In this document: in pieces, positions 15,143 through 63,238 of the stretch | Layout: each line of letters starts with the position of its first letter | Numbering within the stretch: position 1 is the first letter of the stretch | Assembly (NCBI RefSeq): GCF_003019035.1 | Contig: NZ_CP027447.1 | DNA length: 64,000 nt | Source: Escherichia coli | GTDB taxonomy: Bacteria > Pseudomonadota > Gammaproteobacteria > Enterobacterales > Enterobacteriaceae | Strand: one strand, 5' to 3' | Position numbers and translations under genes: made by a program | The notes under the pieces: generated by a model | Told to the model about the DNA's origin: nothing | What the model saw: only the letters and a program-made list of their open reading frames with translations | Database searches by the model: none

Positions 15143-15151
15143 ACTTTCCTA

Positions 15152-15176: not shown

Positions 15177-15204
15177 ACAACTGCATGGATTGACTGGAGA
15201 TAAG

Positions 15205-16716: not shown

Positions 16717-16839
16717 AGCGTTTTCCCACAGGTGACTTACTATAACCGTAGCAAATTCTGCGGCTCTGGCTATGCTCGAGAAAATTCCATAAAATGCATT
16801 TCAAATATACTTTATAAATTAAACAAAATGAGTAAGAAG

Positions 16840-18724: not shown

Positions 18725-19393
18725 ATGCGTACCACATCATTTGCGAAAGTTGCAGCTTTATGCGGCTTGTTGGCTCTGTCTGGTTGTGCCTCTAAAATCA
18801 CCCAGCCAGATAAATATTCTGGTTTTTTAAACAATTACTCTGATTTAAAAGAAACAACCTCAGCAACAGGTAAACCTGTTTTACGTTGGGTAGACCCGAG
18901 TTTTGATCAAAGCAAATATGACAGCATCGTCTGGAACCCAATCACTTATTATCCGGTACCAAAACCTTCTACCCAGGTAGGGCAGAAAGTTCTGGATAAA
19001 ATTTTGAACTATACCAACACCGAAATGAAAGAAGCGATAGCGCAGCGTAAACCACTGGTTACCACCGCTGGGCCGCGTAGTCTGATTTTCCGTGGGGCCA
19101 TTACCGGTGTAGATACCAGCAAAGAAGGGCTGCAATTCTATGAAGTGGTTCCTGTTGCATTAGTGGTTGCGGGGACGCAAATGGCTACAGGCCACCGTAC
19201 CATGGATACTCGCCTCTATTTTGAAGGTGAGCTGATTGATGCAGCGACTAATAAACCGGTTATCAAAGTCGTTCGTCAGGGCGAAGGTAAAGACCTGAAT
19301 AACGAAAGTACGCCAATGGCTTTCGAAAATATTAAACAAGTTATTGATGACATGGCGACCGATGCCACCATGTTTGACGTTAACAAAAAGTAG
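18725..19393 (+). CDS. ydcL: Lipoprotein YdcL
   Basis: 222-aa ORF; lipobox LALSGC near N-terminus. Confidence 0.85.
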   Translation: MRTTSFAKVAALCGLLALSGCASKITQPDKYSGFLNNYSDLKETTSATGKPVLRWVDPSFDQSKYDSIVWNPITYYPVPKPSTQVGQKVLDKILNYTNTEMKEAIAQRKPLVTTAGPRSLIFRGAITGVDTSKEGLQFYEVVPVALVVAGTQMATGHRTMDTRLYFEGELIDAATNKPVIKVVRQGEGKDLNNESTPMAFENIKQVIDDMATDATMFDVNKK

Positions 19394-19401
19394 TTCCAGA
19401 C

Positions 19402-19426
19402 GCGCCATCGTTAGATGGCGCTTTTT
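19402..19426 (+). terminator. Rho-independent terminator after ydcL
   Basis: gcgccatc-gtta-gatggcgc followed by ttttt. Confidence 0.6.
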
Positions 19427-19477
19427 ATCCGGTGCGCCGTAAAACCCCGTCCTTCAGGGCGGGGATATAAGGCGCGG

Positions 19478-19917
19478 TTTTGCACCTGACCAGGTGTTTG
19501 CTGTTGTTCAATGTATTGGCGGATGACGGATATTGGCGCACCTCCGCAGCTACTGGCAAAATAGCCAGGACTCCACAAAACGCCTTTGTAGTAATACCTG
19601 ACTGCAATATCTGGTCGATCTCGTCGCAGTAACCTACCCGATACGCCTTTGAGGCTGTTTACCAGACTGGATATCGCCAGTTTGGGAGGTTAGTTAATTA
19701 ACAAATGGACGTGATCTGGTTCGCCATCCATTTCAACCAGTTCAGCTTCAAAATCAGCACATACATTTGAAAAGTAAGTGCGTAGTTTTTCTGTCGCGTC
19801 ATGGTCAAAAATCTGGCGTCGGTATCTGGTGACAAAGACCAGATGAACATGCATCAGGAAAACACAATGCCTTCCACGCCGGATATCGGTTTCTTTTTTC
19901 ACAGACCAAAGTATCAT
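19478..19917 (-). pseudogene. insP: IS200-type Y1 (HuH) transposase tnpA, disrupted by frameshifts
   Basis: N-terminal 75 codons (19693-19917) carry HVHLVFVTRYRR and the HuH motif DHVHLLI and then stop; downstream minus-strand frames give SLVNSLKGVSGRLLRRD and LWSPGYFASSCGGAPISVIRQYIEQQ in two different frames. Confidence 0.7.
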
Positions 19918-19924
19918 TTGACCT

Positions 19925-21133
19925 GTGAAACGATTACAGGCATTTAAATTCCAGTTAAGACCAGGTGGTCAACAGGAGTGTGAAATGAGGCGCTTCGCAG
20001 GCGCATGTCGTTTCGTTTTCAATCGTGCTCTGGCACGTCAGAATGAGAATCATGAGGCCGGTAATAAATACATCCCTTACGGGAAAATGGCTTCCTGGCT
20101 GGTTGAGTGGAAAAATGCCACTGAAACGCAATGGCTTAAAGATTCTCCCTCACAGCCATTGCAACAGTCACTGAAAGACCTTGAGCGGGCTTACAAAAAC
20201 TTCTTCCGGAAGCGGGCTGCTTTTCCCCGATTCAAAAAGCGGGGACAGAATGATGCATTCCGCTACCCGCAGGGCGTTAAGCTCGATCAGGAAAACAGCC
20301 GTATTTTTCTGCCGAAACTGGGCTGGATGCGCTACCGGAATAGCCGTCAGGTCACGGGTGTTGTGAAAAATGTCACTGTCAGCCAGTCCTGCGGTAAGTG
20401 GTACATCAGTATTCAGACAGAAAGTGAAGTATCCACTCCGGCTCACCCTTCAGCATCAATGGTCGGGCTGGATGCTGGCGTGGCTAAACTCGCCACGCTG
20501 TCAGATGGCACAGTCTTTGAGCCTGTAAACAGTTTTCAGAAAAACCAGAAGACGCTGGCGAGACTTCAGCGACAGTTAAGCCGCAAGGTCAAATTCAGCA
20601 ACAACTGGCAGAAGCAGAAACGCAAAATACAGCGACTGCATTCCTGTATCGCAAATATCCGCAGGGACTACCTTCACAAAGTCACAACGGCCGTCAGCAA
20701 AAACCACGCAATGATAGTCATTGAGGATTTGAAGGTCAGCAACATGTCAAAGTCAGCAGCGGGTACGGTCAGCCAGCCGGGGCGCAATGTCCGGGCAAAA
20801 TCAGGTTTAAACCGTTCGATACTGGATCAGGGCTGGTATGAAATGCGCCGCCAGCTTGAGTACAAGCAGCTCTGGCGTGGCGGTCAGGTGCTTGCTGTTC
20901 CGCCAGCGTATACAAGCCAGCGTTGCGCGTACTGTGGTCATACAGCGAAAGAGAACCGCCTGTCACAAAGTAAATTCAGATGCCAGGTATGTGGATATAC
21001 AGCGAACGCCGATGTAAATGGCGCTCGTAACATTTTAGCGGCGGGGCACGCCGTTCTTGCCTGTGGAGAGATGGTGCAGTCAGGCCGCCCGTTGAAGCAG
21101 GAACCCACCGAAATGATTCAGGCGACAGCCTGA
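19925..21133 (+). CDS. insQ: TnpB-family (OrfB/IS605-type) protein, RuvC-like RNA-guided nuclease family
   Basis: 402-aa intact ORF; N-terminal FKFQLRPGG...RFVFNRAL motif and C-terminal zinc-finger-like CAYCGH/CQVCG cysteine pairs typical of TnpB. Confidence 0.85.
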
Positions 21134-42803: not shown

Positions 42804-43623
42804 AAGGATAAATGGCGTTCTCTGTATTTATTCGCAATTATCTGTAGGACAAATATGGAGAGCTTGATGAGTCAGAGCTAAAACAGCAATTGATTAATAA
42901 ACATGTTGATTTATTCAAGAAAATGGATGTATTTTAAATATTGATTCTTAATATAACCTAATCAATAGATTATCACGTGAGAGCTGCACATTATTGGAGG
43001 GGCAGGGGAAAACACCATTTTGGGAACAATGCATCAGGTACTCTTACCACTGAAGCAAGATCATCCGGGCACCAGGTGGTGGTGCAGTGCTTTGGAAATG
43101 GTCCCCTCGGGGGAGTTGTCATTATTTTCTATGCTATTTGCTTATTATATTCATCAGGTGAATTTAATAAATTCCTAATTTGAAATATCCACTATTAAGC
43201 TAGTGTTTAACGACGTTAAGATGGCAATGTGCAGATCATGTTATCAGGGTGGGGCGGTAGCGTATATTCCTTATACAAACCATCATTCATTTCAATGATT
43301 GTTATTGAATTATTTATTGTTGTGAATAAAAAGACATTATGAATATTGGTTTGACTTTGCATATCAGGTTTTTTATTACTCGCTGTAATGTACGAGCCTG
43401 TCGTGAATAACGTCGAGAACCCATCCGTTGCGTTTGTGATTATTTTGTTGACTAAACAGACACCCGTTTCTCTGAAGTAAAATCCCAGACTAAATCATCA
43501 CATAACCATGACATTTTTCTGATATTCCCCGGTAACGCCAGATGTCGACTCGCTTATCTCATCCGCCCGACATGTTGTACATGCAATATGTGCGGATTAT
43601 TATTCATTTTCACGGAGGTTGCT

Positions 43624-45732
43624 ATGTCAACCGGATTACGTTTCACGCTGGAAGTGGACGGCCTGCCACCGGACGCGTTTGCGGTGGTTTCCTTTCATCT
43701 CACCCAGTCACTCTCTTCACTTTTTTCCCTTGACCTTTCTCTGGTCAGTCAGCAGTTTCTCTCCCTTGAATTTGCGCAGGTGCTGGACAAAATGGCCTAC
43801 CTGACGGTATGGCAGGGCGATGACGTACAGCGCCGGGTGAAAGGCGTGGTGACCTGGTTTGAACTCGGGGAGAACGACAAAAACCAGATGCTGTACAGCA
43901 TAAAGGTGCGCCCGCCGCTGTGGCGGGCAGGACTGCGTCAGAACTTCCGTATCTTCCAGAACGAGGACATCAGAAGCATCCTCGGCACCATACTGCAGGA
44001 AAATGACGTCACGGAGTGGAGTCCGCTGTTCAGCGAGCCGCATCCTTCCCGTGAGTTTTGTGTCCAGTACGGCGAAACCGATTACGATTTCCTGTGCCGG
44101 ATGGCGGCGGAGGAAGGCATCTTCTTTTATGAGGAGCACGCGCAAAAAAGTACCGACCAGAGCCTGGTCCTGTGCGACACCGTGCGTTATCTGCCGGAGT
44201 CCTTTGAGATCCCCTGGAATCCGAACACCCGTACCGAGGTGAGCACCCTATGCATCAGCCAGTTCCTCTACAGCGCACAAATCCGCCCATCTTCCGTGGT
44301 GACCAAAGACTACACCTTTAAACGACCCGGCTGGGCAGGGCGTTTTGATCAGGAAGGCCAGCACCAGGATTACCAGCGCACACAGTATGAAGTGTATGAC
44401 TACCCCGGACGTTTCAAGGGTGCCCACGGGCAGAACTTTGCCTGCTGGCAGATGGATGGCTGGCGAAACAACGCAGAAGTGGCGCGCGGAACAAGCCGTT
44501 CGCCGGAGATATGGCCGGGACGGCGAATTGCGCTGACGGGGCATCCGCAGGCGAACCTGAACCGGGAATGGCAGGTGGTGGCAAGTGAACTGCACGGCGA
44601 GCAGCCGCAGGCGGTGCCGGGACGCAGTGGTTCAGGTACCACGCTGAATAACCACTTTGCGGTAATACCGGCAGACAGAACATGGCGGCCACAGCCGTTG
44701 CTGAAACCGCTGGTGGACGGCCCGCAGAGCGCCGTCGTGACGGGACCGGCAGGAGAAGAAATCTTCTGTGATGAACATGGCCGCGTGCGGGTGAAATTTA
44801 ACTGGGACCGTTATAACCCGTCAAACCAGGACAGTTCATGCTGGATCCGTGTGGCACAGGCGTGGGCAGGCACCGGGTTTGGTAACCTGGCGATACCGCG
44901 TGTGGGTCAGGAGGTCATTGTGGACTTCCTCAACGGCGATCCGGACCAGCCGATTATTATGGGGCGCACCTACCACCAGGAAAACCGCACCCCCGGCAGC
45001 CTGCCGGGAACAAAGACGCAAATGACCATTCGTTCAAAAACCTATAAGGGCAGCGGGTTTAATGAACTGAAGTTTGACGATGCGACAGGGAAAGAACAGG
45101 TCTACATCCACGCGCAGAAGAACATGAACACCGAGGTGCTGAATAACCGCACCACGGATGTGATAAACAACCATGCTGAGACCATCGGCAACAATCAGGT
45201 GATTGCGGTTACCAACAATCAGATACAGACGGTGGGCGTTAACCAGATAGAGACGGTGGGCAGTAACCAGATCATTAAAGTGGGCTCTGTTCAGGTGGAA
45301 ACGATTGGACTTGTTCGTGCGCTGACTGTGGGCGTGGCGTATCAGACGACGGTAGGTGGCATTATGAACACCTCGGTGGCCCTGATGCAGTCCTCGCAGA
45401 TCGGTTTGCATAAATCGTTGATGGTCGGGCTGGGTTATGACGTCAAAGTCGGAAATAACGTTACCTTCACCGTTGGTAAAACGAAAAAGGATGATACCGG
45501 GCAGACCGCGATTTACTCCGCCGGTGAGCATCTGGAACTCTGCTGTGGTAAGGCAAGGCTGGTGCTGACTAAGGACGGACAAATTTTTCTCAACGGCACA
45601 AAAATTCATTTGCAGGGTAAGGAGCAGGTTAATGGTGACTCACTGTTGATTAACTGGAACTGTGCAGCCTCGAAATCCCCACCGAAGACCCCTGATGAAA
45701 AGCAGGATACGCCGGATATGAGAGAGTACTGA
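43624..45732 (+). CDS. vgrG: Type VI secretion spike protein VgrG (orphan, no other T6SS core genes in window)
   Basis: ORF 43588-45732; start at MSTGLRFTLEVDGL with SD ggagg upstream; gp27/gp5-like N-terminus and C-terminal beta-helical repeats (VIAVTNNQIQTVGVNQIETVGSNQIIKVG). Confidence 0.9.
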   Translation: MSTGLRFTLEVDGLPPDAFAVVSFHLTQSLSSLFSLDLSLVSQQFLSLEFAQVLDKMAYLTVWQGDDVQRRVKGVVTWFELGENDKNQMLYSIKVRPPLWRAGLRQNFRIFQNEDIRSILGTILQENDVTEWSPLFSEPHPSREFCVQYGETDYDFLCRMAAEEGIFFYEEHAQKSTDQSLVLCDTVRYLPESFEIPWNPNTRTEVSTLCISQFLYSAQIRPSSVVTKDYTFKRPGWAGRFDQEGQHQDYQRTQYEVYDYPGRFKGAHGQNFACWQMDGWRNNAEVARGTSRSPEIWPGRRIALTGHPQANLNREWQVVASELHGEQPQAVPGRSGSGTTLNNHFAVIPADRTWRPQPLLKPLVDGPQSAVVTGPAGEEIFCDEHGRVRVKFNWDRYNPSNQDSSCWIRVAQAWAGTGFGNLAIPRVGQEVIVDFLNGDPDQPIIMGRTYHQENRTPGSLPGTKTQMTIRSKTYKGSGFNELKFDDATGKEQVYIHAQKNMNTEVLNNRTTDVINNHAETIGNNQVIAVTNNQIQTVGVNQIETVGSNQIIKVGSVQVETIGLVRALTVGVAYQTTVGGIMNTSVALMQSSQIGLHKSLMVGLGYDVKVGNNVTFTVGKTKKDDTGQTAIYSAGEHLELCCGKARLVLTKDGQIFLNGTKIHLQGKEQVNGDSLLINWNCAASKSPPKTPDEKQDTPDMREY

Positions 45733-45798
45733 TCCCGTACCTGTTCAGTATTCAGTAACAAACAAGCATTAAAAATAAACAGAAGAAGGAATTGAATC

Positions 45799-45815
45799 AT
45801 GAGCGGAAAACCAGC
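45799..45815 (+). pseudogene. 5' stub of an rhs gene (start codon plus about 5 codons) truncated by an H-repeat element
   Basis: atgagcggaaaacc matches the first 14 nt of the intact rhs at 53550 (atgagcggaaaacccgcg...), followed directly by the H-repeat left end cagggaaagatca at 45816. Confidence 0.7.
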
Positions 45816-47106
45816 CAGGGAAAGATCATCAGAAGTACACTTTTTGTACTAAACAATTCGCATTTTATGTTTAAAAATTGAGATATTCCTCATTACCTGA
45901 AGCTGTTTTTTATTGCTTATACATGATCAAATACTCCTTACATAATTAAGGAGAACAAAATGGAACTTAAAAAATTGATGGAGCATATTTCTATTATCCC
46001 CGATTACAGACAAGCCTGGAAAGTGGAACATAAATTATCGGACATTCTACTGTTGACTATTTGTGCCGTTATTTCTGGTGCAGAAGGCTGGGAAGATATA
46101 GAGGATTTTGGGGAAACACATCTCGATTTTTTGAAGCAATATGGTGATTTTGAAAATGGTATTCCTGTTCACGATACCATTGCCAGAGTTGTATCCTGTA
46201 TCAGTCCTGCAAAATTTCACGAGTGCTTTATTAACTGGATGCGTGACTGCCATTCTTCAGATGATAAAGGCGTCATTGCAATTGATGGAAAAACGCTCCG
46301 GCACTCTTATGACAAGAGTCGCCGCAGGGGAGCGATTCATGTCATTAGTGCGTTCTCAACAATGCACAGTCTGGTCATCGGACAGATCAAGACGGATGAG
46401 AAATCCAATGAGATTACAGCTATCCCAGAACTTCTTAACATGCTGGATATTAAAGGAAAAATCATCACAACTGATGCGATGGGTTGCCAGAAAGATATTG
46501 CAGAGAAGATACAAAAACAGGGAGGTGATTATTTATTCGCTGTAAAAGGAAATCAGGGGCGGCTTAATAAAGCCTTTGAGGAAAAATTTCCACTGAAAGA
46601 ATTAAATAATCCAGAGCATGACAGTTACGCAATGAGTGAAAAGAGTCACGGCAGAGAAGAAATCCGTCTTCACATTGTTTGCGATGTCCCTGATGAACTT
46701 ATTGATTTCACGTTTGAATGGAAAGGTCTGAAGAAATTATGCGTGGCAGTCTCCTTTCGGTCAATAATAGCAGAACAAAAGAAAGAGCCAGAAATGACGG
46801 TCAGATATTATATCAGTTCTGCTGATTTAACCGCAGAGAAGTTCGCCACAGCAATCCGAAACCACTGGCACGTGGAGAATAAGCTGCACTGGCGTCTGGA
46901 CGTGGTAATGAATGAAGACGACTGCAAAATAAGAAGAGGAAACGCCGCAGAATTATTTTCAGGGATACGGCACATCGCTATTAATATTTTAACGAATGAT
47001 AAGGTATTCAAGGCAGGGTTAAGACGTAAGATGCGAAAAGCTGCCATGGACAGAAACTATCTCGCGTCAGTCCTTGCGGGGAGCGGGCTTTCGTAATCTT
47101 TCCCTG
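45816..47106 (+). mobile_element. H-repeat (ISAs1-family) element, copy A, 1291 bp
   Basis: Terminal inverted repeats cagggaaaga (left) and tctttccctg (right); encodes a 378-aa transposase; nearly identical to copies at 50594-51884 and 58348-59638. Confidence 0.85.
45960..47096 (+). CDS. ISAs1-family transposase (H repeat-associated protein, YdcC/YhhI-like)
   Basis: 378-aa ORF with SD aaggag; three near-identical copies in the window. Confidence 0.88.
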
Positions 47107-48889
47107 GCTGCTGGAGTTCACGCGCGACCGCCTGCACCGGGAGACGGTGCGCAGCTTCGGCAGCATGGCAGGCAGTAATGCCGCATACGAACTGACCAGC
47201 ACATACACCCCCGCAGGCCAGTTACAGAGCCAGCACCTGAACAGCCTGGTATATGACCGTGACTACGGGTGGAGTGACAACGGCGACCTGGTGCGCATCA
47301 GCGGCCCGCGACAGACGCGGGAATACGGCTACAGCGCCACGGGCAGGCTGGAGAGTGTGCGCACCCTCGCACCGGACCTGGACATCCGCATCCCGTATGC
47401 CACGGACCCGGCGGGCAACCGGCTGCCGGACCCGGAGCTGCACCCGGACAGTACACTCACAGTGTGGCCGGATAACCGAATCACCGAAGACGCGCACTAC
47501 CTGTACCGTTACGATGAATACGGCAGGCTGACGGAGAAGACGGACCGCATCCCGGCGGGTGTGATACGGACGGACGACGAGCGGACCCACCACTACCGCT
47601 ACGACAGCCAGCACCGCCTGGTGTTCCACACGCGGATACAGCATGGCGAGCCACTGGTCGAGAGCCGCTACCTCTACGACCCGCTGGGACGGCGAATGGC
47701 AAAACGGGTCTGGCGGCGGGAGCGTGACCTGACGGGGTGGATGTCGCTGTCGCGTAAACCGGAGGAGACATGGTACGGGTGGGACGGCGACAGGCTGACG
47801 ACGGTGCAGACTGACACCACACGTATCCAGACGGTCTACCAGCCGGGGAGCTTCACGCCGCTCATCCGTATCGAGACAGAGAACGGCGAACGGGAGAAAA
47901 TGCAACGCCGCAGCCTGGCGGAGAAGTTACAGTCGGAAGGGAGTGAGGACGGTCACGGTGTGGTGTTCCCGGCTGAGCTGGTGAGGATGCTGGACAGGCT
48001 GGAGGAAGAAATCCGGGCAGACCGCGTGAGCAGTGAAAGCCGGGCGTGGCTTGCGCAGTGCGGGCTGACGGTGGAGCAACTGGCCAGACAGGTGGAGCCG
48101 GAATACACACCGGCGCGAAAAGTTCATTTTTACCACTGCGACCACCGGGGCCTGCCGCTGGCGCTCATCAGCGAAGACGGCAATACGGTGTGGAGCGGGG
48201 AGTATGATGAATGGGGCAACCAGCTTAATGAGGAGAACCCGCATCATGTGTATCAGCCATACCGCCTGCCGGGGCAGCAGTATGATGAGGAGTCGGGGCT
48301 GTACTATAACCGCAACCGGTACTATGATCCGTTGCAGGGGAGGTATATTACCCAGGATCCGATTGGGCCGGTGGGGGGGTGGAATCCCTATAGTTATGTG
48401 CTTATTAATCCAGCCCAGTTTATTGACCCAACAGGTTTAACTCAAGAGGACAATTGGACCTATGGTGAGGTAGGTAATAGCTGTGTTACGAGTCAACGCG
48501 ATTTTACTCCCCCGCCCGGACTTGCGGATATGAAAGCCAGCATTGGCGCTGCCTGCTCAAGAAACAATGCTTCCAGAAACTGCCACCCCGTAGATGGTAG
48601 TAATGCTTCTGCACCATCGGATAAAGCCGCATGGGAAAATATTCAAAATGCGACAAATGGTAAAGATTTATCTGGTGGTGGAAATATGTTTTGTGTAGGA
48701 AATGAGGACTGTGCGGTTGTTCATAGCTGTCGTGAAATAGTTAATGCTCGACACCCGGCAGGACGAGTGCGTGAACGTGTAACTCCGTTAACAACGTCAG
48801 GAACAGCAACGCTCAATGGAACAACAGTTTACTTTTATAATGATCCCCGGAATGGCAATTGTCCTGCTCACGAATATATTCCTCAATAA
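47107..48889 (+). pseudogene. rhsE: Orphan Rhs 3' fragment (rhsE-like): distal core repeats plus a divergent C-terminal toxin tip; no native start codon
   Basis: Begins abruptly at the right end of H-repeat copy A; 47107-48355 is collinear, without indels, with 55994-57242 of the intact rhs (about 93% amino-acid identity); DPIGP motif at 48356-48370; unique C-terminal about 173 codons. Confidence 0.8.
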
Positions 48890-48939
48890 AGAAAAGTGGC
48901 CAGACTAAGCTCTAGCCACATTTTTTGGAGATCCTTTTC

Positions 48940-49563
48940 ATGAAAAGGTTTTTTATAACATGTTGCGTTATGACATTATTTTTATTTGTTAAATGTAAAG
49001 CAGCGTGTGTAACTTCCTTATATGAGGTTCAGCAATCGCTCTTTACATACATTTATTTGATTAGACAAGACCCTGTTCATTTTGATTCATATATTAAGAA
49101 TGTGCATAACGAATTAAAAATATTCCATGATATTGATAAAGCAATGAATATAGCCTCAGATATGGTCAAAATTATTGATATAAAGACCCGTTTATCATTT
49201 AATAATGATTTATATATATTACAAGGGGAACGACAGTATGCAATAGTTAAGAGTGAAGGGGAAAGTAGTCAATTAAAATCATCAGCATTTATCATATCTA
49301 ATTACCCACTATTTAAAAACAAAGTTCTGTTAATTTTATCCGCTACTAGTCCCGTTCAGTTGGTTATATTGTCTTTTGATCAATGTCTTAATGTGGAGGT
49401 GTTATTTGATTCAATGTCTCCAGTTTTCGCTAAGTATAGAGAAGATATTAGTGCAACATTACCATTATGGAAGGTTATTTTGACAAAAAATGATATAGAA
49501 TTATATGAGTACCATAGAACAAATCCATACTCACTTAACAAATTATTGAGCATGTCAAAATAA
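48940..49563 (+). CDS. Putative immunity protein for the orphan Rhs-CT (AT-rich, signal-peptide-like N-terminus)
   Basis: ORF 48925-49563 (TTG) or ATG at 48940 (MKRFFITCCVMTLFLFVKCKAAC...); directly downstream of the toxin tip; low GC. Confidence 0.6.
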   Translation: MKRFFITCCVMTLFLFVKCKAACVTSLYEVQQSLFTYIYLIRQDPVHFDSYIKNVHNELKIFHDIDKAMNIASDMVKIIDIKTRLSFNNDLYILQGERQYAIVKSEGESSQLKSSAFIISNYPLFKNKVLLILSATSPVQLVILSFDQCLNVEVLFDSMSPVFAKYREDISATLPLWKVILTKNDIELYEYHRTNPYSLNKLLSMSK

Positions 49564-49748
49564 CGGTCAAGTATTCAACGTTGTAATATTATTCCTTTTG
49601 CTGAGTGTCTCGAACGGCTAAAGTTGACGTAAAATGCCACGTTTTGTGGGCAAACCGAATCGGTTAAAAAGCATGGTCCGGGAAAAGCTTAACATCAGCG
49701 CTATCGGTGCCAAATGTGCAGCAGGCCTTTCCAGCCTGATTACCAGGG

Positions 49749-50004
49749 CAGGGCGGGATCGTGAATATTGTGATGCATATCACATGAACTCCTGGTTTTA
49801 ACTTATTATTTCGGTTAAAATTTAACCACTGAAATCATTAGGATTCGAGCAAAGGGACGGCATATGGATATTCAAAATTTACTGGATTATATTTCTATAA
49901 TTCCTGATTATCGTCAGCAAGGGAAAATAAGGCATAAATTGTCAGATATTTTATTGCTCACTATATGTGCTATTATTGCCGGTTCTGATGAATGGGAGGA
50001 TATT
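49749..50004 (+). mobile_element. Truncated H-repeat variant (fragment D): left end plus first about 47 codons of transposase
   Basis: IR-like cagggcgggatcgtga at about 49749; ORF start 49864 ([48 protein letters not shown]) interrupted by the next element. Confidence 0.65.
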
Positions 50005-50593
50005 CAGGGCAAGATCATGAAAATCGTGATGTAAATCACAATTTTCAACCTGGCTTTAACTCCTTCAGGAGATTAAAATTTAACCTATGGAATAACTAAA
50101 AAGATAAAAAAGGACGCCAGATGAGTATTCAAAGTTTGCTTGATTATATTTCAGTGTTCCCTGATATACGACAACAAGGAAAGGTTAAACATAAATTATC
50201 TGATATTTTGTTTCTCACCGTATGTGCAGTAATTGCAGGTGCCGATGAGTGGCAGGAAATTGAAGATTTTGGACATGAAAGACTGGAATGGCTAAAGAAA
50301 TATGGTGATTTTGATAATGGCATTCCGGTCGATGACACCATTGCACGCGTTGTGAGTAACATTGACAGTTTGGCCTTTGAAAAGATGTTTATTGAATGGA
50401 TGCAGGAGTGCCATGAAATCACTGATGGTGAAATTATAGCAATAGATGGAAAGACCATAAGAGGCTCCTTTGATAAGGGAAAAAGGAAAGGAGCAATCCA
50501 TATGGTGAGTGCATTCTCGACTGAAAATGGTGTTGTACTGGGGCAGGTGAAAACGGAAGCCAAAAGTAATGAGATTACAGCCATTCCAGAGTT
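50005..50593 (+). mobile_element. Truncated H-repeat variant (fragment E) inserted into fragment D and itself cut by copy B
   Basis: Left end cagggcaagatca at 50005; transposase N-terminal 158 codons (ORF 50121..., diverged from copies A-C) ending where the copy B left IR starts at 50594. Confidence 0.7.
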
Positions 50594-51884
50594 CAGGGAA
50601 AGATCATCAGAAGTACACTTTTTGTACTAAACAATTCGCATTTTATGTTTAAAAATTGAGATATTCCTCATTACCTGAAGCTGTTTTTTATTGCTTATAC
50701 ATGATCAAATACTCCTTACATAATTAAGGAGAACAAAATGGAACTTAAAAAATTGATGGAACATATTTCTATTATCCCCGATTACAGACAAGCCTGGAAA
50801 GTGGAACATAAATTATCGGATATTCTACTGTTGACTATTTGTGCCGTTATTTCGGGTGCAGAAGGCTGGGAAGATATAGAGGATTTTGGGGAAACACATC
50901 TCGATTTTTTGAAGCAATATGGTGATTTTGATAATGGTATTCCTGTTCACGATACCATTGCCAGAGTTGTATCCTGTATCAGTCCTGCAAAATTTCACGA
51001 GTGCTTTATTAACTGGATGCGTGACTGCCATTCTTCAGATGATAAAGACGTCATCGCAATTGATGGAAAAACACTCCGGCATTCTTATGACAAGAGTCGC
51101 CGCAGGGGAGCGATTCATGTCATTAGTGCGTTCTCAACAATGCACAGTCTGGTCATCGGACAGATCAGGACGGATGAGAAATCCAATGAGATCACAGCTA
51201 TCCCTGAACTTCTTAACATGCTGGATATTAAAGGAAAAATTATCACAACTGATGCAATGGGTTGCCAGAAAGATATTGCAGAGAAGATACAAAAACAGGG
51301 CGGTGATTATTTATTCGCTGTAAAAGGAAATCAGGGTCGGCTAAATAAAGCCTTTGAGGAAAAATTCCCACTGAAAGAATTAAATAATCCAGAACATGAC
51401 AGTTACGCAATGAGTGAAAAGAGTCACGGCAGAGAAGAAATCCGTCTTCACATTGTTTGCGATGTCCCTGATGAACTTATTGATTTCACGTTTGAATGGA
51501 AAGGTCTGAAGAAATTATGCGTGGCAGTCTCCTTTCGGTCAATAATAGCAGAACAAAAGAAAGAGCCAGAAATGACGGTCAGATATTATATCAGTTCTGC
51601 TGATTTAACCGCAGAGAAGTTCGCCACAGCAATCCGAAACCACTGGCACGTGGAGAATAAGCTGCACTGGCGTCTGGACGTGGTAATGAATGAAGACGAC
51701 TGCAAAATAAGAAGAGGAAACGCCGCAGAATTATTTTCAGGGATACGGCACATCGCTATTAATATTTTGACGAATGATAAGGTATTCAAGGCAGGGTTAA
51801 GACGTAAGATGCGAAAAGCTGCCATGGACAGAAACTATCTCGCGTCAGTCCTTGCGGGGAGCGGGCTTTCGTAATCTTGCCCTG
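50594..51884 (+). mobile_element. H-repeat (ISAs1-family) element, copy B, 1291 bp
   Basis: Same IRs and length as copy A. Confidence 0.85.
50738..51874 (+). CDS. ISAs1-family transposase (H repeat-associated protein)
   Basis: 378-aa ORF, a few substitutions relative to copy A. Confidence 0.88.
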
Positions 51885-51896
51885 CTTTGTAATGGT

Positions 51897-52079
51897 ATGG
51901 CAGGAGGATATGAATTTGCAGTAAGTAAATTTGGTCAGTCGGCCTATGATGCCGCACAGGAAAAAGCATTAAATAACTATATGGAATTTGAAATGTTAGA
52001 TTTATTACAAAGCATGGGAGAGAATGTCAATCCAGATGAATATAAGCAGGCGCATGATAGAGTTGTTAATCCAAATTGA
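51897..52079 (+). CDS. Small ORF (60 aa) starting just outside the copy B right end; possibly the 3' remnant of a toxin tip
   Basis: ORF 51852-52079 begins inside the IS right end; first ATG outside the IS at 51897 (MAGGYEFAVSKFG...); stop overlaps the next gene. Confidence 0.35.
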   Translation: MAGGYEFAVSKFGQSAYDAAQEKALNNYMEFEMLDLLQSMGENVNPDEYKQAHDRVVNPN

Positions 52080-52093
52080 ATGCAGAGGGGAGT

Positions 52094-52657
52094 ATGTTAT
52101 TAAAACTGATAATGTTATTTTCAATATTTTTTATCCCGTTTTTGGCAGGTTGCAGTATGTTTGATGATGTTTTTGAGAAAAACTACTCATTGAGTTCTGT
52201 CGCCAGTTTTCCAGATGACGTTGATGAATTAAAAGAAATATGGTTTTTTTGTGAAAGATGTTTAAGTGATGAGCAGTGCGAAAATCATGACATTAAACAA
52301 TGTAGAGATGTAACTATTCCCGGTAGAGATGAAGCATTAAGTAAAGCTGTAGGCAGAGCCAATGTCGAAGCTGTTTACTTTCTTGTTGATGTGGCAAAAA
52401 CTGATGTCAATGGTATTACAGGTAAATATAAGGAAACACCATTAATTATTGCTGCATATTATGGAACTCAAGCACATCAGGATATAGCTGAATTTTTGCT
52501 ATTGCATGGGGCAGATATTAATAAAACTTACCCAGCCATTGGGCGAAATCCTCTAGGTGTCGCCAGATGGAAGCATAATGTCGATTTCGTTAATTTTCTA
52601 CTGAAGCATGGTGCTGAACCAGCAGTACATATGGGGTCGATTGAGAATAAAGAGTGA
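52094..52657 (+). CDS. Ankyrin-repeat lipoprotein (candidate immunity protein)
   Basis: ORF 52076-52657; ATG at 52094 preceded by gagggga; lipobox FLAGC; ankyrin-like repeats (TPLIIAAYYGTQAHQDIAEFLLLHGADIN, NPLGVARWKHNVDFVNFLLKHGAEP). Confidence 0.7.
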   Translation: MLLKLIMLFSIFFIPFLAGCSMFDDVFEKNYSLSSVASFPDDVDELKEIWFFCERCLSDEQCENHDIKQCRDVTIPGRDEALSKAVGRANVEAVYFLVDVAKTDVNGITGKYKETPLIIAAYYGTQAHQDIAEFLLLHGADINKTYPAIGRNPLGVARWKHNVDFVNFLLKHGAEPAVHMGSIENKE

Positions 52658-53100
52658 GATTTAACAAAAATGCAATTCATGCTCTCGCCTTGGGTGACGG
52701 TATTGATACTGCTTTTAAGTGTTCAGGAAAAATGGAAAGTGGTAAACCCTTAAAATCTTCGGGCAAATGGGATTACTCTGTTGGTGGGACAAATGGTGCC
52801 TTTCTTTATCTTAAAGACTATTCAAATATTTTGACGGCTGGCCACACAGGAAATCTGGCAGTTACTTTTCTTGGAAGTTACAATGCTCAATATTCAATAA
52901 ACGGAAACTCTCTGGATGTAGTTGTAACAAATTCTTCAACGATACAATCAGCGACACATCCCCCAATCCTGGAGTATACAAAATGGTGGCAGGATAATAT
53001 TGGTAATCCTTTGGATAGAAAATTTCAAAAAGGTCCCACGTCCCCAAAAACACAAACCATAAATTTACACTTTGATTTGTCATGTGCGTGCAAAAAATGA
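52654..53100 (+). CDS. Hypothetical protein, translationally coupled to flanking genes
   Basis: GTG at 52654 overlaps the upstream stop; alternative ATG at 52732; stop overlaps the downstream ATG (atga) at 53097. Confidence 0.5.
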   Translation: MRFNKNAIHALALGDGIDTAFKCSGKMESGKPLKSSGKWDYSVGGTNGAFLYLKDYSNILTAGHTGNLAVTFLGSYNAQYSINGNSLDVVVTNSSTIQSATHPPILEYTKWWQDNIGNPLDRKFQKGPTSPKTQTINLHFDLSCACKK

Positions 53101-53480
53101 AAATTTTATTTATGTTATTATTAATTATCTTGAGTGGATGTGATGGCGAAAATGATGCCAAATTTGTTGGGCAATGGCTTGCTGATATTGATGGTGATAT
53201 AAAATCAGAATTGATCGTGAAGGCAAATGGAATTTTTTATTTCAAGAATATGCCTATGGAGACAGTTTGTCGCGAGGATAAAACATATAAGGCTAATTTT
53301 TTCGGGGATTGGACTATTAATATTGACAATAGGATTGATATTTCAATGGATAATGTTAATTCTGAACGGTGTAATATTCCATCCTCGTATTTAATTAATG
53401 GGTTTTATGATGGTGGATATTTTTTATGTCAGAAAGGATTGTCTTTTTTCCAGACGGACCTGATGAGCCAGGTAATATGA
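53097..53480 (+). CDS. Small lipoprotein (candidate immunity protein)
   Basis: ORF 53082-53480; ATG at 53097 (MKILFMLLLIILSGCDGEND) with lipobox LSGC; AT-rich. Confidence 0.6.
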   Translation: MKILFMLLLIILSGCDGENDAKFVGQWLADIDGDIKSELIVKANGIFYFKNMPMETVCREDKTYKANFFGDWTINIDNRIDISMDNVNSERCNIPSSYLINGFYDGGYFLCQKGLSFFQTDLMSQVI

Positions 53481-53549
53481 TCATTTATATTAAACAATGA
53501 AAGTATTGATCGTGAGCAGATTAAATATATAAGAAATTAAGGAGATACC

Positions 53550-56500
53550 ATGAGCGGAAAACCCGCGGCACGCCAGGGTGATGCCACGCTGAAAGGCGGT
53601 CCGATAGTCCAGGGGTCAGCGGGGGTGCTGATAGGCGCGCCCACCGGCGTGGCGTGCTCGGTGTGTCCGGGCGGGATGACTTCGGGCAACCCGGTAAATC
53701 CGCTGCTGGGGGCGAAGGTGCTGCCCGGCGAGACGGACCTTGCCCTGCCCGGCCCGCTGCCGTTCATTCTCTCCCGCACCTACAGCAGCTACCGGACGAG
53801 GACGCCTGCCCCGGTGGGCGTTTTCGGCCCCGGCTGGAAAGCGCCTTCGGATATCCGCTTACAGCTACGTGATGACGCACTGATACTCAACGACAACGGC
53901 GGGCGGAGCATTCACTTTGAGCCGCTGCTGCCGGGGGAGGCGGTGTACAGCCGCAGCGAGTCAATGTGGCTGGTGCGCGGTGGTAAGGCAGCGCAGCCGG
54001 ACGGCCACACGCTGGCGCGACTGTGGGGGGCGCTGCCGCCGGATATCCGGTTAAGCCCGCATCTTTACCTGGCGACCAACAGCGCACAGGGGCCGTGGTG
54101 GATACTCGGCTGGTCAGAGCGGGTGCCGGGTACTGAGGACGTACTGCCAGCGCCGCTGCCGCCGTACCGGGTGCTTACCGGGCTGGCGGACCGCTTCGGG
54201 CAGACGCTGACGTACCGGCGTGAGGCCGCCGGTGACCTGGCCGGGGAAATCACCGGCGTGACGGACGGTGCCGGGCGGAAGTTCCGTCTGGTGCTGACCA
54301 CGCAGGCGCAGCGTGCGGAAGAGGCCCGCACCTCTTCGCTATCTTCTTCTGACCGTTCCCGCCCTCTCTCAGCCTCAGCGTTCCCCGACACACTGCCCGG
54401 TACGGAATACGGCCCCGACAGGGGCATCCGTCTTTCGGCGGTGTGGCTGATGCACGACCCGGCATACCCGGAAAGCCTGCCCGGTGCGCCACTGGCGCGG
54501 TACACGTATACGGAAGCCGGTGAACTGCTGGCGGTATATGACCGCAGCAATACGCAGGTGCGCGCTTTCACGTATGACGCGCAGCACCCGGGCCGGATGG
54601 TGGCGCACCGTTACGCGGGAAGGCCGGAGATGCGCTACCGCTACGACGATACGGGGCGGGTGGTGGAGCAACTGAACCCGGCAGGGTTAAGCTACCGCTA
54701 TCTTTATGAGCAGGACCGCATCACCATCACGGACAGCCTGAACCGGCGAGAGGTGCTGCATACAGAAGGCGGGGCCGGGCTGAAGCGGGTGGTGAAAAAA
54801 GAACTGGCGGACGGCAGCGTCACGCACAGCGGGTATGACGCGGCAGGAAGGCTCACGGCACAGACGGACGCGGCGGGACGGCAGACAGAGTACGGTCTGA
54901 ATGTGGTGTCAGGCGATATCACGGACATCACCACGCCGGACGGGCGGGAGACGAAATTTTACTATAACGACGGGAACCAGGTGACGGCAGTGGTGTCCCC
55001 GGACGGGCTGGAGAGCCGCCGGGCGTATGATGAGCGGGACAGGCTGGTAACGGAGACATCGCGCAGTGGGGACGTCATCCGGTATGCTTATGATAATCCG
55101 CACAGTGAATTACCGGCCACGACAACAGATGCGACGGGCAGCACCCGGCAGATGACCTGGAGCCGCTACGGGCAGTTGCTGGCGTTCACCGACTGCTCGG
55201 GCTACCAGACCCGCTATGAATACGACCGCTTCGGCCAGATGACGGCGGTCCACCGCGAGGAAGGCATCAGCCTTTACCGCCGCTATGACAACCGTGGCCG
55301 GTTAACCTCGGTGAAAGACGCACAGGCCCGTGAAACGCAGTATGAGTACAACGCCGCAGGCGACCTGACTGCCGTTATCACCCCGGATGGCAACCGGAGT
55401 GAGACACAGTACGATGGGTGGGGAAAGGCCATCAGCACCACGCAGGGCGGGCTGACGCGCAGTATGGAGTACGATGCTGCCGGACGTATCACCACGCTGA
55501 CTAACGAGAACGGCAGCCACAGCGACTTTAGTTACGATGCGCTGGACCGCCTGATACAGCAGGGCGGCTTTGACGGGCGGACGCAACGTTATCATTATGA
55601 CCTGACCGGAAAACTCACGCAGAGTGAAGATGAGGGGCTTGTCATCCTCTGGTACTACGATGAATCGGACCGTATTACTCACCGCACGGTAAACGGTGAA
55701 CCGGCAGAACAGTGGCGGTATGACGGCCACGGCTGGCTGAGAGAAATCAGCCACCTGAGCGAAGGCCACCGTGTTGCCGTCCACTATGGCTATGATAATA
55801 AAGGCCGCCTGACCAGTGAGCGCCAGACGGTGCATCACCCGGAGACGGGAGAGCTGCTCTGGCAGCATGAGACCGGACATGCGTACAACGAACAGGGGCT
55901 GGCAAACCGCGTCACGCCGGACAGTCTGCCGCCGGTGGAGTGGCTGACCTATGGTAGCGGTTATCTGGCAGGCATGAAGCTGGGCGGGACGCCGCTGCTG
56001 GAGTTCACGCGCGACCGCCTGCACCGTGAGACGGTGCGCAGCTTCGGCAGCATGGCAGGCAGTAATGCCGCATACGAACTGACCAGCACATACACCCCTG
56101 CAGGCCAGTTACAGAGTCAGCACCTGAACAGCCTGGTGTATGACCGTGACTACGGGTGGAATGACAACGGAGACCTGGTGCGCATCAGCGGCCCGCGACA
56201 GACGCGGGAATACGGCTACAGCGCCACGGGCAGGCTGGAGAGTGTGCGCACCCTCGCACCGGACCTGGACATCCGCATCCCGTATGCCACGGACCCGGCG
56301 GGCAACCGGCTGCCGGACCCGGAGCTGCACCCGGACAGTACACTCACAGTGTGGCCGGATAACCGCATCGCGGAGGATGCGCACTATGTCTACCGCCACG
56401 ATGAATACGGCAGGCTGACGGAGAAGACGGACCGCATCCCGGCGGGTGTGATACGGACGGACGACGAGCGGACCCACCACTACCACTACGACAGCCAGCA

Positions 56501-57803
56501 CCGCCTGGTGTTCTACACGCGGATACAGCATGGCGAGCCACTGGTCGAGAGCCGCTACGTCTACGACCCGCAGGGACGGCGAATGGCGAAACGGGTATGG
56601 CGGCGGGAGCGTGACCTGACGGGGTGGATGTCGCTGTCGCGTAAACCGGAGGTGACGTGGTACGGCTGGGACGGCGACCACCTGACGACGGTGCAGACCG
56701 ACAGCACACGTATCCAGACGGTATACGAGCCGGGAAGCTTCACACCGCTCATCCGCATCGAAACAGACAACGGCGAGCGGGAGAAAACGCAGCGGCGGAG
56801 CCTGGCGGAGAAGCTCCAGCAGGAAGGGAGCGAGGACGGACACGGTGTGGTGTTCCCGGCTGAACTGGTGAGGATGCTGGACAGGCTGGAGGAAGAAATC
56901 CGGGCAGACCGCGTGAGCGGTGAAAGCCGGACGTGGCTTGCACAGTGCGGGCTGGCGGTGGAGCAACTGGAAAAACAGGTGGAGCCGGAATACACGCCGG
57001 AACGCACACTGCATCTTTACCACTGCGACCACCGGGGACTGCCGCTGGCGCTTATCAGCGAAGACGGCAATACGGTGTGGAGCGCGGAGTATGATGAATG
57101 GGGAAACCTGCTTAATGAGGAGAACCCGCATCATGTGTATCAGTCATACCGTCTGCCGGGGCAGCAGCATGATGAGGAGTCGGGGCTGTATTATAACCGG
57201 AACCGGTACTATGACCCGCTACAGGGGAGGTATATCACCCAGGATCCAATCGGGCTAAGAGGTGAATGGAATCTGTATAAATATCCATTAAACCCTGTTC
57301 GGTTTATAGATTCTTTGGGTTTAAAATTCCATGTTAACGGTGATCCAAGTGATTTTAATCAGGCTGTTGAGTATTTAAAACAAGATTCACGAATGAAAGA
57401 AGCTATAGATTTTTTATCAAGCTCTGAAGAAACCATAAAGATAGAGTATATTGATGAAACCGACGTTAGATTTGACCCGGATAAAATGACTATATATTGG
57501 AATGGTAAGGCGGCTTTATTTTGTTCAACTGATTTAAAATCGAAATCACAATCACCTGCATTAGGTTTGGGGCATGAGTTTGCTCATGCGCACTTATATC
57601 TTATTGATAAGGATGGTTATATGGGGCTTGTGAGACGTGCGGATGAACAATATAAAAATAAAGAAGAGGCGAGAGTTATCACTTTAATTGAACAGCATGC
57701 GGCGAAAACTTTAGGTGAGTGTACCAGAACAGCATATAATGGAGTGTATTATCGTGTGAATACACCAACGCAGACGGCAACAATAAATGGCACGCCAGAA
57801 TAG
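53550..57803 (+). CDS. rhs: Full-length Rhs polymorphic toxin: PAAR-like N-terminus, YD-repeat shell, DPxGL autoproteolysis motif, C-terminal HExxH-containing toxin tip
   Basis: 1417-aa ORF with SD aaggag; N-terminal [11 protein letters not shown]...CSVCPGG; RHS/YD repeats; PxxxxDPIGL at 57243-57257; C-terminal about 180 aa contain [11 protein letters not shown]. Confidence 0.92.
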
Positions 57804-57815
57804 TGAGATTTTTTT

Positions 57816-58265
57816 ATGATGAAATATTTGATGGTTTTATTGTCTCTATTTTCTGCTTCGGTATTGGGGATGGGGCGAGTGAATGAATTGTGTGGAATAG
57901 ATAGTGTGAAAACGATAGAAATAATTAATCTTCCAGCATATGTTACCACCTTAACCCCGCTTAGCAAGGAAGGTCTCAAGAGAATATACAAACATAAAGT
58001 GGTGGTGAATGGAGTTAGCGATTTTTATGCTGGTGAGATAATTGATTTATTGCAAATGAAGTATTTCAGGAAGGAGGAGAATAACGATATAAGATGGGGG
58101 GTTGACATTGTTTCGAATAAAAATAATAAATGTGAAATTTATTTTGATGGTTTTGGTGAATGTGGAAGTGTGAATGGCATTAACGTATGTTTTGAAAAAA
58201 ATGAAATGATAGATTGGATTAAAAAAGAAATCCCTTTTCTGTCGCAAGAAATAGGTGGTCTTTAA
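57816..58265 (+). CDS. Putative cognate immunity protein with N-terminal signal peptide
   Basis: 149-aa ORF 12 nt downstream of the rhs stop; hydrophobic N-terminus MMKYLMVLLSLFSASVLG; AT-rich. Confidence 0.7.
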   Translation: MMKYLMVLLSLFSASVLGMGRVNELCGIDSVKTIEIINLPAYVTTLTPLSKEGLKRIYKHKVVVNGVSDFYAGEIIDLLQMKYFRKEENNDIRWGVDIVSNKNNKCEIYFDGFGECGSVNGINVCFEKNEMIDWIKKEIPFLSQEIGGL

Positions 58266-58322
58266 ATGGTAGGGCAATATTCAAAGACAGTATAGGTAAC
58301 TATTTGTATGGACATGTAAGGT

Positions 58323-58372
58323 CAGGGAAAGATCACGTAACGCTGCTCAGGGAAAGATCACGTAACGCTGCT
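58323..58372 (+). repeat. Perfect 25-bp tandem duplication of the H-repeat left terminus
   Basis: cagggaaagatcacgtaacgctgct occurs twice in direct tandem (58323-58347 and 58348-58372); measured from the second unit the element is 1291 bp, the same as copies A and B. Confidence 0.85.
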
Positions 58373-59638
58373 TTTTTGTACTAAACAATCCGCATTTTAT
58401 GTTTAAAAATTGAGATATTCCTCATTACCTAAAGCTGTTTTTTATTGCTTATACATGATCAAATACTCCTTACATAATTAAGGAGAACAAAATGGAACTT
58501 AAAAAATTGATGGAACATATTTCTATTATCCCCGATTACAGACAAGCCTGGAAAGTGGAACATAAATTATCGGATATTCTACTGTTGACTATTTGTGCCG
58601 TTATTTCGGGTGCAGAAGGCTGGGAAGATATAGAGGATTTTGGGGAAACACATCTCGATTTTTTGAAGCAATATGGTGATTTTGATAATGGTATTCCTGT
58701 TCACGATACCATTGCCAGAGTTGTATCCTGTATCAGTCCTGCAAAATTTCACGAGTGCTTTATTAACTGGATGCGTGACTGCCATTCTTCAGATGATAAA
58801 GACGTCATCGCAATTGATGGAAAAACACTCCGGCATTCTTATGACAAGAGTCGCCGCAGGGGAGCGATTCATGTCATTAGTGCGTTCTCAACAATGCACA
58901 GTCTGGTCATCGGACAGATCAGGACGGATGAGAAATCCAATGAGATCACAGCTATCCCTGAACTTCTTAACATGCTGGATATTAAAGGAAAAATTATCAC
59001 AACTGATGCAATGGGTTGCCAGAAAGATATTGCAGAGAAGATACAAAAACAGGGCGGTGATTATTTATTCGCTGTAAAAGGAAACCAGGGGCGGCTAAAT
59101 AAAGCCTTCGAGGAAAAATTTCCGCTGAAAGAATTAAATAATCCAGAGCATGACAGTTACGCAATGAGTGAAAAGAGTCACGGCAGAGAAGAAATCCGTC
59201 TTCACATTTTTTGCGATGTCCCTGATGAACTTATTGATTTCACGTTTGAATGGAAAGGTCTGAAGAAATTATGCGTGGCAGTCTCCTTTCGGTCAATAAT
59301 AGCAGAACAAAAGAAAGAGCCAGAAATGACGGTCAGATATTATATCAGTTCTGCTGATTTAACCGCAGAGAAGTTCGCCACAGCAATCCGAAACCACTGG
59401 CACGTGGAGAATAAGCTGCACTGGCGTCTGGACGTGGTAATGAATGAAGACGACTGCAAAATAAGAAGAGGAAATGCAGCAGAATTATTTTCAGGGATAC
59501 GGCACATCGCTATTAATATTTTGACGAATGATAAGGTATTCAAGGCAGGGTTAAGACGTAAGATGCGAAAAGCAGCCATGGACAGAAACTATCTGGCGTC
59601 AGTCCTTGCGGGGAGCGGGCTTTCGTAATCTTTCCCTG
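58348..59638 (+). mobile_element. H-repeat (ISAs1-family) element, copy C, 1291 bp
   Basis: Same terminal IRs; internal bases 14-25 differ from copies A and B (cgtaacgctgct versus tcagaagtacac). Confidence 0.85.
58492..59628 (+). CDS. ydcC: ISAs1-family transposase (H repeat-associated protein, ydcC-equivalent position)
   Basis: 378-aa ORF; position before yddH corresponds to ydcC of reference strains. Confidence 0.8.

Positions 59639-62014: not shown

Positions 62015-63238
<1,224 letters not shown>

Follow-up and report, generated by a model that had tools for sequence, protein, structure and literature searches.

A conserved core repeat in two rhs genes of a rearranged Escherichia coli RhsE locus, one of them probably decapitated by ISAs1, and the recombination products predicted from its geometry

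Rhs loci set which contact-dependent toxins an Escherichia coli strain fires and resists. Here, we analyzed a stretch of 64,000 nucleotides of E. coli contig NZ_CP027447.1 (hereafter the window), in which all reading frames are intact. Its first 43 kb are ordinary core chromosome, from hrpA to ansP. Judged by its neighbors in the window, the region that follows is the RhsE locus of E. coli, located between yncG-yncH and yddH-nhoA. The module is headed by vgrG, encoding the T6SS spike protein (43588..45732, plus strand; TIGR03361, 623.8 bits), which is collinear with the vgrG genes of E. coli C, YZMc3-1, D8 and EC42405. On the same strand follow 17 nt (45799..45815, ATGAGCGGAAAACCAGC) that alignment with the YZMc3-1 locus (L003) marks as the start of the original vgrG-linked rhs, cut by the first of three ISAs1 copies. 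This copy, ISAs1#1 (45816..47106, plus strand), is an H-repeat of 1291 bp with a transposase ORF at 45960-47096, and it replaces rhs nt 18-2444. Directly at its end begins copy 1 of the repeat under study (R1, 47107..48355, plus strand), which represents core nt 2445-3693, toward the 3' end of the Rhs core, in the decapitated gene. The same strand then carries tip A (48356..48889), a toxin C-terminal region that is open and intact and contains seven Cys, and a candidate immunity gene for tip A with a signal-peptide-like N-terminus and 29% GC (48940..49563). Remnants of IS1 and a transposase (~49595-49997) lie before a yncI-like fragment of an ISAs1-like transposase (50005..50593, plus strand), which has a partial match to NF033564, matches L002 9055-9643 and is also found in the annotation of SCU-301.

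The right part of the module is bounded by two further ISAs1 copies. ISAs1#2 (50594..51884, plus strand) is 98.5% identical to ISAs1#1 and borders the last 195 nt of a third rhs tip, tip C (51885..52079, plus strand). The latter assignment comes from D8: window 51885-54510 aligns with the D8 locus (L007) at 14001-16626, and the CDS of the first D8 rhs ends at 14195. Since in D8 this segment follows a full-length rhs with tip C, the 195 nt are the tail of tip C, cut by ISAs1#2. An ankyrin-repeat lipoprotein gene (the candidate tip C immunity gene), an ORF of 148 aa and a small lipoprotein ORF come next (together 52094..53480, plus strand; lipoboxes LAGC and LSGC). The intact rhs of 1417 aa occupies 53550-57803 on the plus strand and consists of an N-terminal delivery region with the 5' core (53550..55993), copy 2 of the repeat as located by offset comparison (R2, 55994..57242), and tip B (57243..57803). 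It is followed on that strand by a candidate immunity gene for tip B (57816..58265), which has a signal-peptide-like N-terminus and is always linked to tip B, and by ISAs1#3 (58348..59638), identified by repeat search and by its inverted repeats and preceded by a tandem copy of its own left end of 25 nt (58323-58347). GC content shows the classic Rhs pattern, with 63% in the core, 37-46% in the tips and 29-34% in the immunity candidates.

The intact rhs belongs to the Rhs family over its full length, with 2717 bits against NF041261 (cutoff 2000) across model positions 1-1261. The truncated copy scored 937 bits and covered only model positions 820-1261, as expected of a partial gene. Both core copies were matched by TIGR03696 (E = 2e-24 and 4e-23), and both end in a core boundary of the PxxxxDPxGL type (DPIGP or DPIGL), beyond which come a variable tip and then a small ORF. 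DUF6531 was found in the N-terminal part of the intact Rhs at E = 1e-18; the Pfam match to PAAR was not significant (E = 0.28), and PAAR membership is not claimed. Tip A had no Pfam match, and its best hit in a search of PDB sequences was insignificant (E = 0.21). Tip B contains a HEFAH motif and showed a weak match to Peptidase_M91 (E = 0.09). When the tips and immunity candidates were compared with Pfam, PDB sequences and PADLOC, nothing significant was returned apart from this weak match and, for the immunity candidate of tip C, one of ankyrin type. The toxin and immunity roles are putative and are assigned from position, composition and signal peptides. The candidate immunity ORFs all start with signal-peptide or lipobox sequences, which suggests that the toxins of this locus act in the periplasm. 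A scan of 45600-58400 for promoters and terminators gave counts no higher than in shuffled sequence.

The two copies of the repeat were compared without gaps at an offset of 8887. Over 1249 nt (47107-48355 versus 55994-57242), we found 78 mismatches and no indels, which corresponds to 93.75% nucleotide identity and, in the rhs frame, to 93.3% amino acid identity across 416 codons. The same pair was recovered by a repeat search of the window (family D4). The earlier note on this DNA had described two collinear segments without indels and with about 93% amino acid identity, and these figures bear it out. Mismatches were biased toward the third codon position (47, compared with 17 at the first and 14 at the second) and were clustered: the longest perfect run was 194 nt (47285-47478; p = 5e-5 by permutation), and further perfect runs measured 87, 71, 55 and 54 nt. 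In 50-nt windows, identity drops to background at both flanks (12-38% on the left and 14-30% on the right). The left boundary falls exactly at 47107/55994, where in copy 1 an ISAs1 (H-repeat) element ends. The right boundary falls within the DPIGP/DPIGL codons (~48355-48360) and is the core/tip junction where all rhs alleles cease to match. The same note had also claimed that similarity stops abruptly there and that the tips are unrelated. This holds for the nucleotide sequence, which diverges at DPIG; at the protein level, however, tips A and B keep family motifs for about 28 more residues (WN.Y.Y ... FID..GL), and the NCBIfam Rhs_assc_core domain reaches residue 444 of the truncated copy, 28 residues beyond the end of nucleotide identity. 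The repeat is the 3' third of the Rhs core, a conserved part that this rearranged RhsE locus carries in two rhs genes.

This tract is widespread in the species: of 5426 complete E. coli genomes, 3898 contain it, with a median of 7 sites per genome. Among eight alleles from five strains, its identity ranged from 88 to 96.6%, and the 93.8% between R1 and R2 falls inside this range. Considering this range and the wide occurrence, the tract is ordinary: it is the conserved core common to E. coli rhs toxin genes. Within the same set of eight alleles from five strains, no extra similarity between R1 and R2 was seen that would indicate ongoing exchange within the locus, and the perfect block of 194 nt sits where all alleles are 98-99% alike. 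Sliding-window identities revealed that all compared cores are fine-scale mosaics; some patches are 100% identical in alleles from separate strains, and others in the tandem rhs pair of D8. The recombination outcome recorded in these sequences is patchy gene conversion among cores. We also considered the intact rhs as a simple recombinant with a D8-like 5' part and an EC42405-like 3' part; this was rejected in the sliding-window comparison, where mosaics were present throughout and no single breakpoint appeared.

The origin of the truncated copy is best approached through YZMc3-1, in which vgrG is directly followed by a full-length rhs that carries tip A; the small ORF and the IS1 remnant seen in the window come after it there as well. 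The alignment to L003 has two parts: 43000-45815 of the window corresponds to L003 1501-4317, in which the rhs CDS begins at 4301, and 47107-49710 corresponds to L003 6745-9348 at 97.7%, from rhs nt 2445 on. Taken together, the alignments on either side of ISAs1#1 mean that rhs nt 18-2444 are missing from the window and that ISAs1#1 occupies their position. The 17-nt remnant at 45799-45815 is identical in sequence to the beginning of the intact rhs (from 53550). As read from these alignments, the fragment is the original vgrG-linked rhs of the locus, apparently decapitated by ISAs1, and not a displaced tip: the element sits 17 nt into the gene, the next 2427 nt are gone, and what is left begins at the IS end. 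The label "orphan" used in the earlier note is accordingly misleading, since the fragment appears to be the resident vgrG-linked rhs, marked by its 17-nt remnant and uninterrupted in YZMc3-1.

The element itself is a member of the ISAs1 (H-repeat) family, with a transposase matching NF033564 at 417 bits, terminal inverted repeats (11 bp in ISAs1#1, CAGGGAAAGAT) and three copies of 1291 bp. No target-site duplication was found at any of the three copies in the window. In EcPF16, on the other hand, a simple ISAs1 insertion in the same region of the rhs core has a target-site duplication of 9-10 bp. This difference indicates that the copies in the window are rearranged junctions, and for ISAs1#1 it implies either an insertion with a deletion or recombination between IS copies. 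We looked for matching flanks across the three copies from which a history of IS-IS recombination could be rebuilt, and found none. The decapitation may have come about by one ISAs1 insertion with an adjacent deletion, by two insertions followed by IS-IS recombination, or by import of a pre-formed junction. A more complex history, via a D8-like ancestor and duplication, may also be considered, as in D8 the same ankyrin segment precedes the second-slot rhs, which bears tip A. How these events followed one another is conjectural, and deriving the window from either a D8-like or a YZMc3-1-like ancestor needs at least two or three events.

To place the two tips in a wider context, we examined their arrangement in other isolates. 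Tip A together with its ORF and the IS1 remnant was rare, being present in 11 of 5426 complete genomes, with tip A 99.3-100% identical, and the candidate immunity ORF (48940..49563) was contiguous with tip A in all 11. Four of the 11 loci were inspected and the other seven were classed by annotation names. SCU-301 carries tip A in the same arrangement as the window, D8 carries it on its second tandem rhs, which is a pseudogene, and in the O169:H41 strain the tip A gene is interrupted by IS21. By annotation, three of the seven remaining genomes encode an RHS element core protein (like YZMc3-1) and four a partial RHS (like O169:H41). In 39 genomes, tip B recurred with its ORF at an identity of 99% or more: in strain 1190, which was inspected as an example, it lies in a T6SS cluster adjoining yafV, and in EC42405 it lies on the vgrG-linked rhs of the RhsE locus. 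The segment 51885-53560 was found only in SCU-301, D8 and one small contig. Comparison of isolates for alternative tip arrangements had been proposed as a check in the earlier note; such arrangements exist, in keeping with what is expected of Rhs loci, as tips A and B occur on full-length genes elsewhere (YZMc3-1, EC42405 and D8). A product derived from the arrangement of the window was found in no genome among those compared.

Whether the repeat could mediate exchange depends on its length and its divergence. Shen and Huang are said to have placed the minimal processing segment for RecA-dependent recombination at roughly 25-30 bp in 1986, and mismatch repair is expected to reduce the frequency of exchange. 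R1 and R2 are direct repeats on the same strand, and with 1249 bp at 93.8% identity and perfect runs of 194, 87 and 71 nt they are a usable substrate, as had been proposed. The tract is comparable to the one over which rhs-main and rhs-orphan of Salmonella Typhimurium LT2 recombine (522 bp at 95%) (Koskiniemi et al., 2014; PMC3967940). As it is longer than the LT2 tract and several of its perfect runs are well above this minimal length, its divergence does not forbid exchange, an objection that the earlier note had foreseen.

What such an exchange would yield is set by the order of the genes. Both rhs copies are on the plus strand, with the truncated one (47107-48889) upstream and the intact one (53550-57803) downstream. 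We simulated the products in silico with a crossover inside the 194-nt perfect block. The product of the simulated deletion is bounded by ISAs1#1 to the left and by tip B to the right, and 53550-55993 is missing from it; its open frame of 628 codons starts inside the ISAs1 end, finishes in tip B and lacks the whole N-terminal region and the 5' core. It also loses tip A, the putative immunity gene of tip A and the immunity candidate of tip C. Because the truncated copy is upstream, deletion destroys the intact rhs instead of giving it a new tip. An intrachromosomal deletion would therefore leave ISAs1, a headless core and tip B, and the only intact rhs of the locus would be lost. The simulated reciprocal product is a tandem duplication of 8887 bp with an open gene of 1408 aa, composed of the intact N-terminus, the core and tip A. 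This chimera equals the YZMc3-1 Rhs in length, with 95.1% identity between the two. When the exchange takes place within one chromosome, the excised circle carries this joint as well, so that the fusion would be expected only on this excised circle of 8.9 kb or in a tandem duplication of 8.9 kb made by unequal sister-chromatid exchange. On the whole, we consider it probable (about 0.85) that the locus is correctly described by a shared Rhs core, a vgrG-linked gene decapitated by ISAs1 and products fixed by geometry.

The core tract is also not the only repeat available for recombination. At 1291 bp each, the three ISAs1 copies form direct repeats with 97.2-98.5% identity and perfect runs of 265-653 nt; being longer and more alike, they suit recombination better than the core tract does. 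Recombination of #1 with #2 would delete the tip A module, that of #2 with #3 the intact rhs, and that of #1 with #3 both; these deletions would span 4.8, 7.8 and 12.5 kb, respectively. In addition, each of the two tip cassettes has the core tract on its left and an ISAs1 copy on its right. With these shared flanks, two-sided gene conversion that swaps the cassettes is geometrically possible.

Several other readings of this locus should be weighed against the one preferred here. The earlier note had proposed that RecA-mediated deletion of 8.9 kb fuses the N-terminus and core of the intact gene to the tip of the fragment and so switches the toxin. The repeats do have the direct orientation and the length that this requires (longest perfect run, 194 nt), and an analogous event is known from Salmonella LT2, whose orphan is located 3' of the main gene (PMC3967940). 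In the window, however, the fragment is upstream, and the simulated deletion takes away the 5' part of the intact gene as well as tip A and its immunity gene and ends in tip B; the proposed fusion has the wrong geometry, is already refuted by the coordinates and can be regarded as extremely unlikely. A functional switch might still be reached by duplication, through an unequal sister-chromatid exchange of R2 with R1 over 8.9 kb, or by gene conversion with the core tract as the left and ISAs1 as the right boundary. In the former case a full-length Rhs-tip A chimera would be gained while tip B and all immunity genes are kept, and in the latter the tip A cassette would replace the tip B cassette. 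This reading draws on the open 1408-aa gene of the simulation with its 95.1% identity to a natural full-length tip A Rhs, on the core tract and ISAs1 flanking both cassettes, on tip A being intact and 99.3% identical to full-length alleles, and on isolates whose full-length genes in these slots end in tip A or tip B; in Salmonella, too, a duplicated locus is the setting in which the chimera arises (PMC3967940). Such a product is nevertheless absent from both genomes with this arrangement, R1 and R2 show no extra similarity pointing to ongoing exchange, the ISAs1 copies should outcompete a core tract of 93.8% identity as crossover sites, and tandem duplications are unstable without selection (PMC3967940). 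We therefore consider a switch of this kind unlikely, though it deserves some weight. Its most specific form is a little less likely still, namely that a single unequal sister-chromatid exchange acts as a one-step, reversible "add a toxin" switch, in which Rhs-tip A is gained and Rhs-tip B and the immunity genes are kept, and whose intrachromosomal version releases a circle with a complete chimeric gene. It would take one step, compared with the two steps of duplication and then deletion inferred in Salmonella, and the excised circle with the chimera resembles the circular intermediate postulated for C-terminal displacement.

That displacement model, in which circular intermediates are formed by core-core recombination (PMC2935791), offers a different account of the fragment itself, as a classical dissociated tip (Jackson et al., 2009). 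The composition would fit, as there is a core fragment with a distinct tip and a linked small ORF (PMC2935791). Dissociated tips in Enterobacteriaceae have been described, however, downstream of the full-length gene that they resemble (Jackson et al., 2009; PMC2935791), and here the fragment lies upstream. It starts at the ISAs1 end, with 17 nt of rhs beside vgrG across the element, and an uninterrupted version of the gene is present in YZMc3-1. Moreover, a dissociated tip should have a core near-identical to that of the gene immediately upstream; all that lies upstream in the window is the 17-nt rhs remnant, and the core of the fragment is nearer to the YZMc3-1 allele (96.0%) than to the neighboring intact rhs (93.8%). 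We thus judge this origin to be very unlikely and prefer decapitation of the resident gene. Finally, three ISAs1 copies and two rhs cores are hard for short-read assembly, and the arrangement might be an artefact of collapsed or wrongly joined repeats. The intact reading frames throughout the window argue against this, and SCU-301, for which an independent complete genome is available, has an identical order and identical junctions; an assembly error is therefore hardly credible.

Among known systems, E. coli K-12 has a 5'-truncated rhsE at the same chromosomal site (yncH ... ydcC/ISAs1 ... yddH-nhoA). The Rhs elements of K-12, with H-repeats of the ISAs1 family, were reportedly described by Hill and co-workers (1984-1995), and Rhs cores were named after the unequal crossing-over that gave a duplication. 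As in K-12 RhsE, the window has ISAs1/H-rpt copies associated with rhs cores and a truncated core with a tip and a small downstream ORF. Unlike K-12, the strain of the window keeps vgrG and a second intact rhs with a different tip, and it also contains three ISAs1 copies, all intact, as well as what is left of two more tip/immunity modules.

Another close parallel is the rhs locus of Salmonella LT2. In both cases, a full-length rhs is accompanied by a 5'-truncated fragment with its own tip and immunity gene (a candidate gene in the window) and by a direct core repeat, and homologous recombination can yield a chimeric full-length gene with the tip of the fragment. In LT2, the chimera was found in the context of a duplicated locus (PMC3967940). 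The LT2 orphan lies downstream of the main gene, so that deletion makes the chimera, whereas the fragment in the window (47107-48889) is 5' of the main gene, deletion kills the intact rhs and the simulated frame is headless; the geometry of the LT2-type deletion switch is thus absent. The fragment also appears to have been made by an IS rather than by tip displacement. The systems of Jackson et al. (2009; PMC2935791) and the orphan rhs-CT/rhsI modules of Poole et al. (2011; PMC3150448) share with the window a GC-rich conserved core, non-homologous AT-rich tips and core fragments directly repeated with a neighboring full-length gene. In contrast to these systems, the fragment here is upstream, is bounded by ISAs1 and seems to come from the vgrG-proximal gene itself.

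Recombination between main and orphan rhs genes is already published for Salmonella, and the routes of duplication, conversion and circular intermediates have already been described for Rhs systems; no new principle is involved here. What the locus illustrates is that reactivation of a silent rhs fragment depends on its position relative to the intact gene. For an upstream fragment decapitated by an IS, simple deletion cannot activate the tip, and only duplication, conversion or transfer could do so. If every rhs fragment is treated as a swap-ready "orphan", whether by annotation pipelines or by readers, the outcomes of recombination will be mispredicted. This matters for the biology of the species, as the exchange of tips shapes the competition between E. 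coli strains in the gut.

Within the window, the ISAs1 (H-repeat) element is present in three 1291-bp copies that appear to be intact and lie as direct repeats at 45816-47106, 50594-51884 and 58348-59638, with pairwise identities of 97.2-98.5%, and none of the three is flanked by a target-site duplication. For recombination, these ISAs1 copies provide better substrates than the rhs tract does, and deletion of one or the other rhs module, or of both, could take place via them. The left end of the third copy differs from those of the other two at positions 13-25, and a 25-nt tandem copy of this left end (CAGGGAAAGATCACGTAACGCTGCT) is located directly before the element (58323-58347).

The junctions between ISAs1 and the rhs core were placed on the core coordinates of the window for three strains, giving position 55994 for the window itself (47107), 55896 for YZMc3-1 (position 10638 of its locus) and 55944 for EcPF16 (positions 7909/9201 of its locus). 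The occurrence of three distinct junctions inside approximately 100 nt of the core in three strains suggests that this part of the rhs core is an ISAs1 insertion hotspot. In EcPF16, the junction represents a simple insertion with the target-site duplication GTGGAGTGG.

SCU-301 was the only other genome with the arrangement of the window, and its intact rhs core lacks approximately 970-980 nt, with positions 14410-14419 of its locus corresponding to 54942-55912 of the window. The joint has a 10-nt overlap. Either this gap arose by deletion between short repeats inside the gene, or it is an artefact of a noisy assembly, in which many frameshifts have been annotated. In D8, two rhs genes are arranged in tandem (9993-14195 and 15666-20179 of its locus), and they share approximately 450 nt at 100% identity, while their cores are 87-98% identical elsewhere; such an identical patch is indicative of intralocus gene conversion. 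The second D8 gene, which carries a pseudogene annotation, contains approximately 287 extra nt.

The segment upstream of the intact rhs (51852-53480) holds leftovers of further toxin and immunity modules: a third tip, full length in D8, of which the final 195 nt remain here, followed by an ankyrin-repeat lipoprotein, a small lipoprotein and a 148-aa ORF without a family match. Of 5426 complete genomes, only 3 were found to carry this segment. The IS-remnant region that separates the second ISAs1 copy from the tip A module contains a 50-nt direct repeat (49791-49840 and 50049-50098, 72% identity), which may represent the ends of degraded IS copies. Further downstream, a 326-aa ORF on the minus strand (62035-63015) lies between nhoA and yddE; SCU-301 is annotated with an IS110-family IS621 transposase at this position, where the ORF is absent from all three of E. 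coli C, YZMc3-1 and EC42405.

Tip A, the toxin C-terminal region of the vgrG-linked rhs (48356-48889), contains seven cysteines; it had no Pfam match, and its best hit among PDB sequences was insignificant (E = 0.21). The linked ORF (48940-49563) has a GC content of 29% and a signal-peptide-like start. Every immunity candidate in the locus appears to be exported, and this suggests that the toxins of the locus act in the periplasm.
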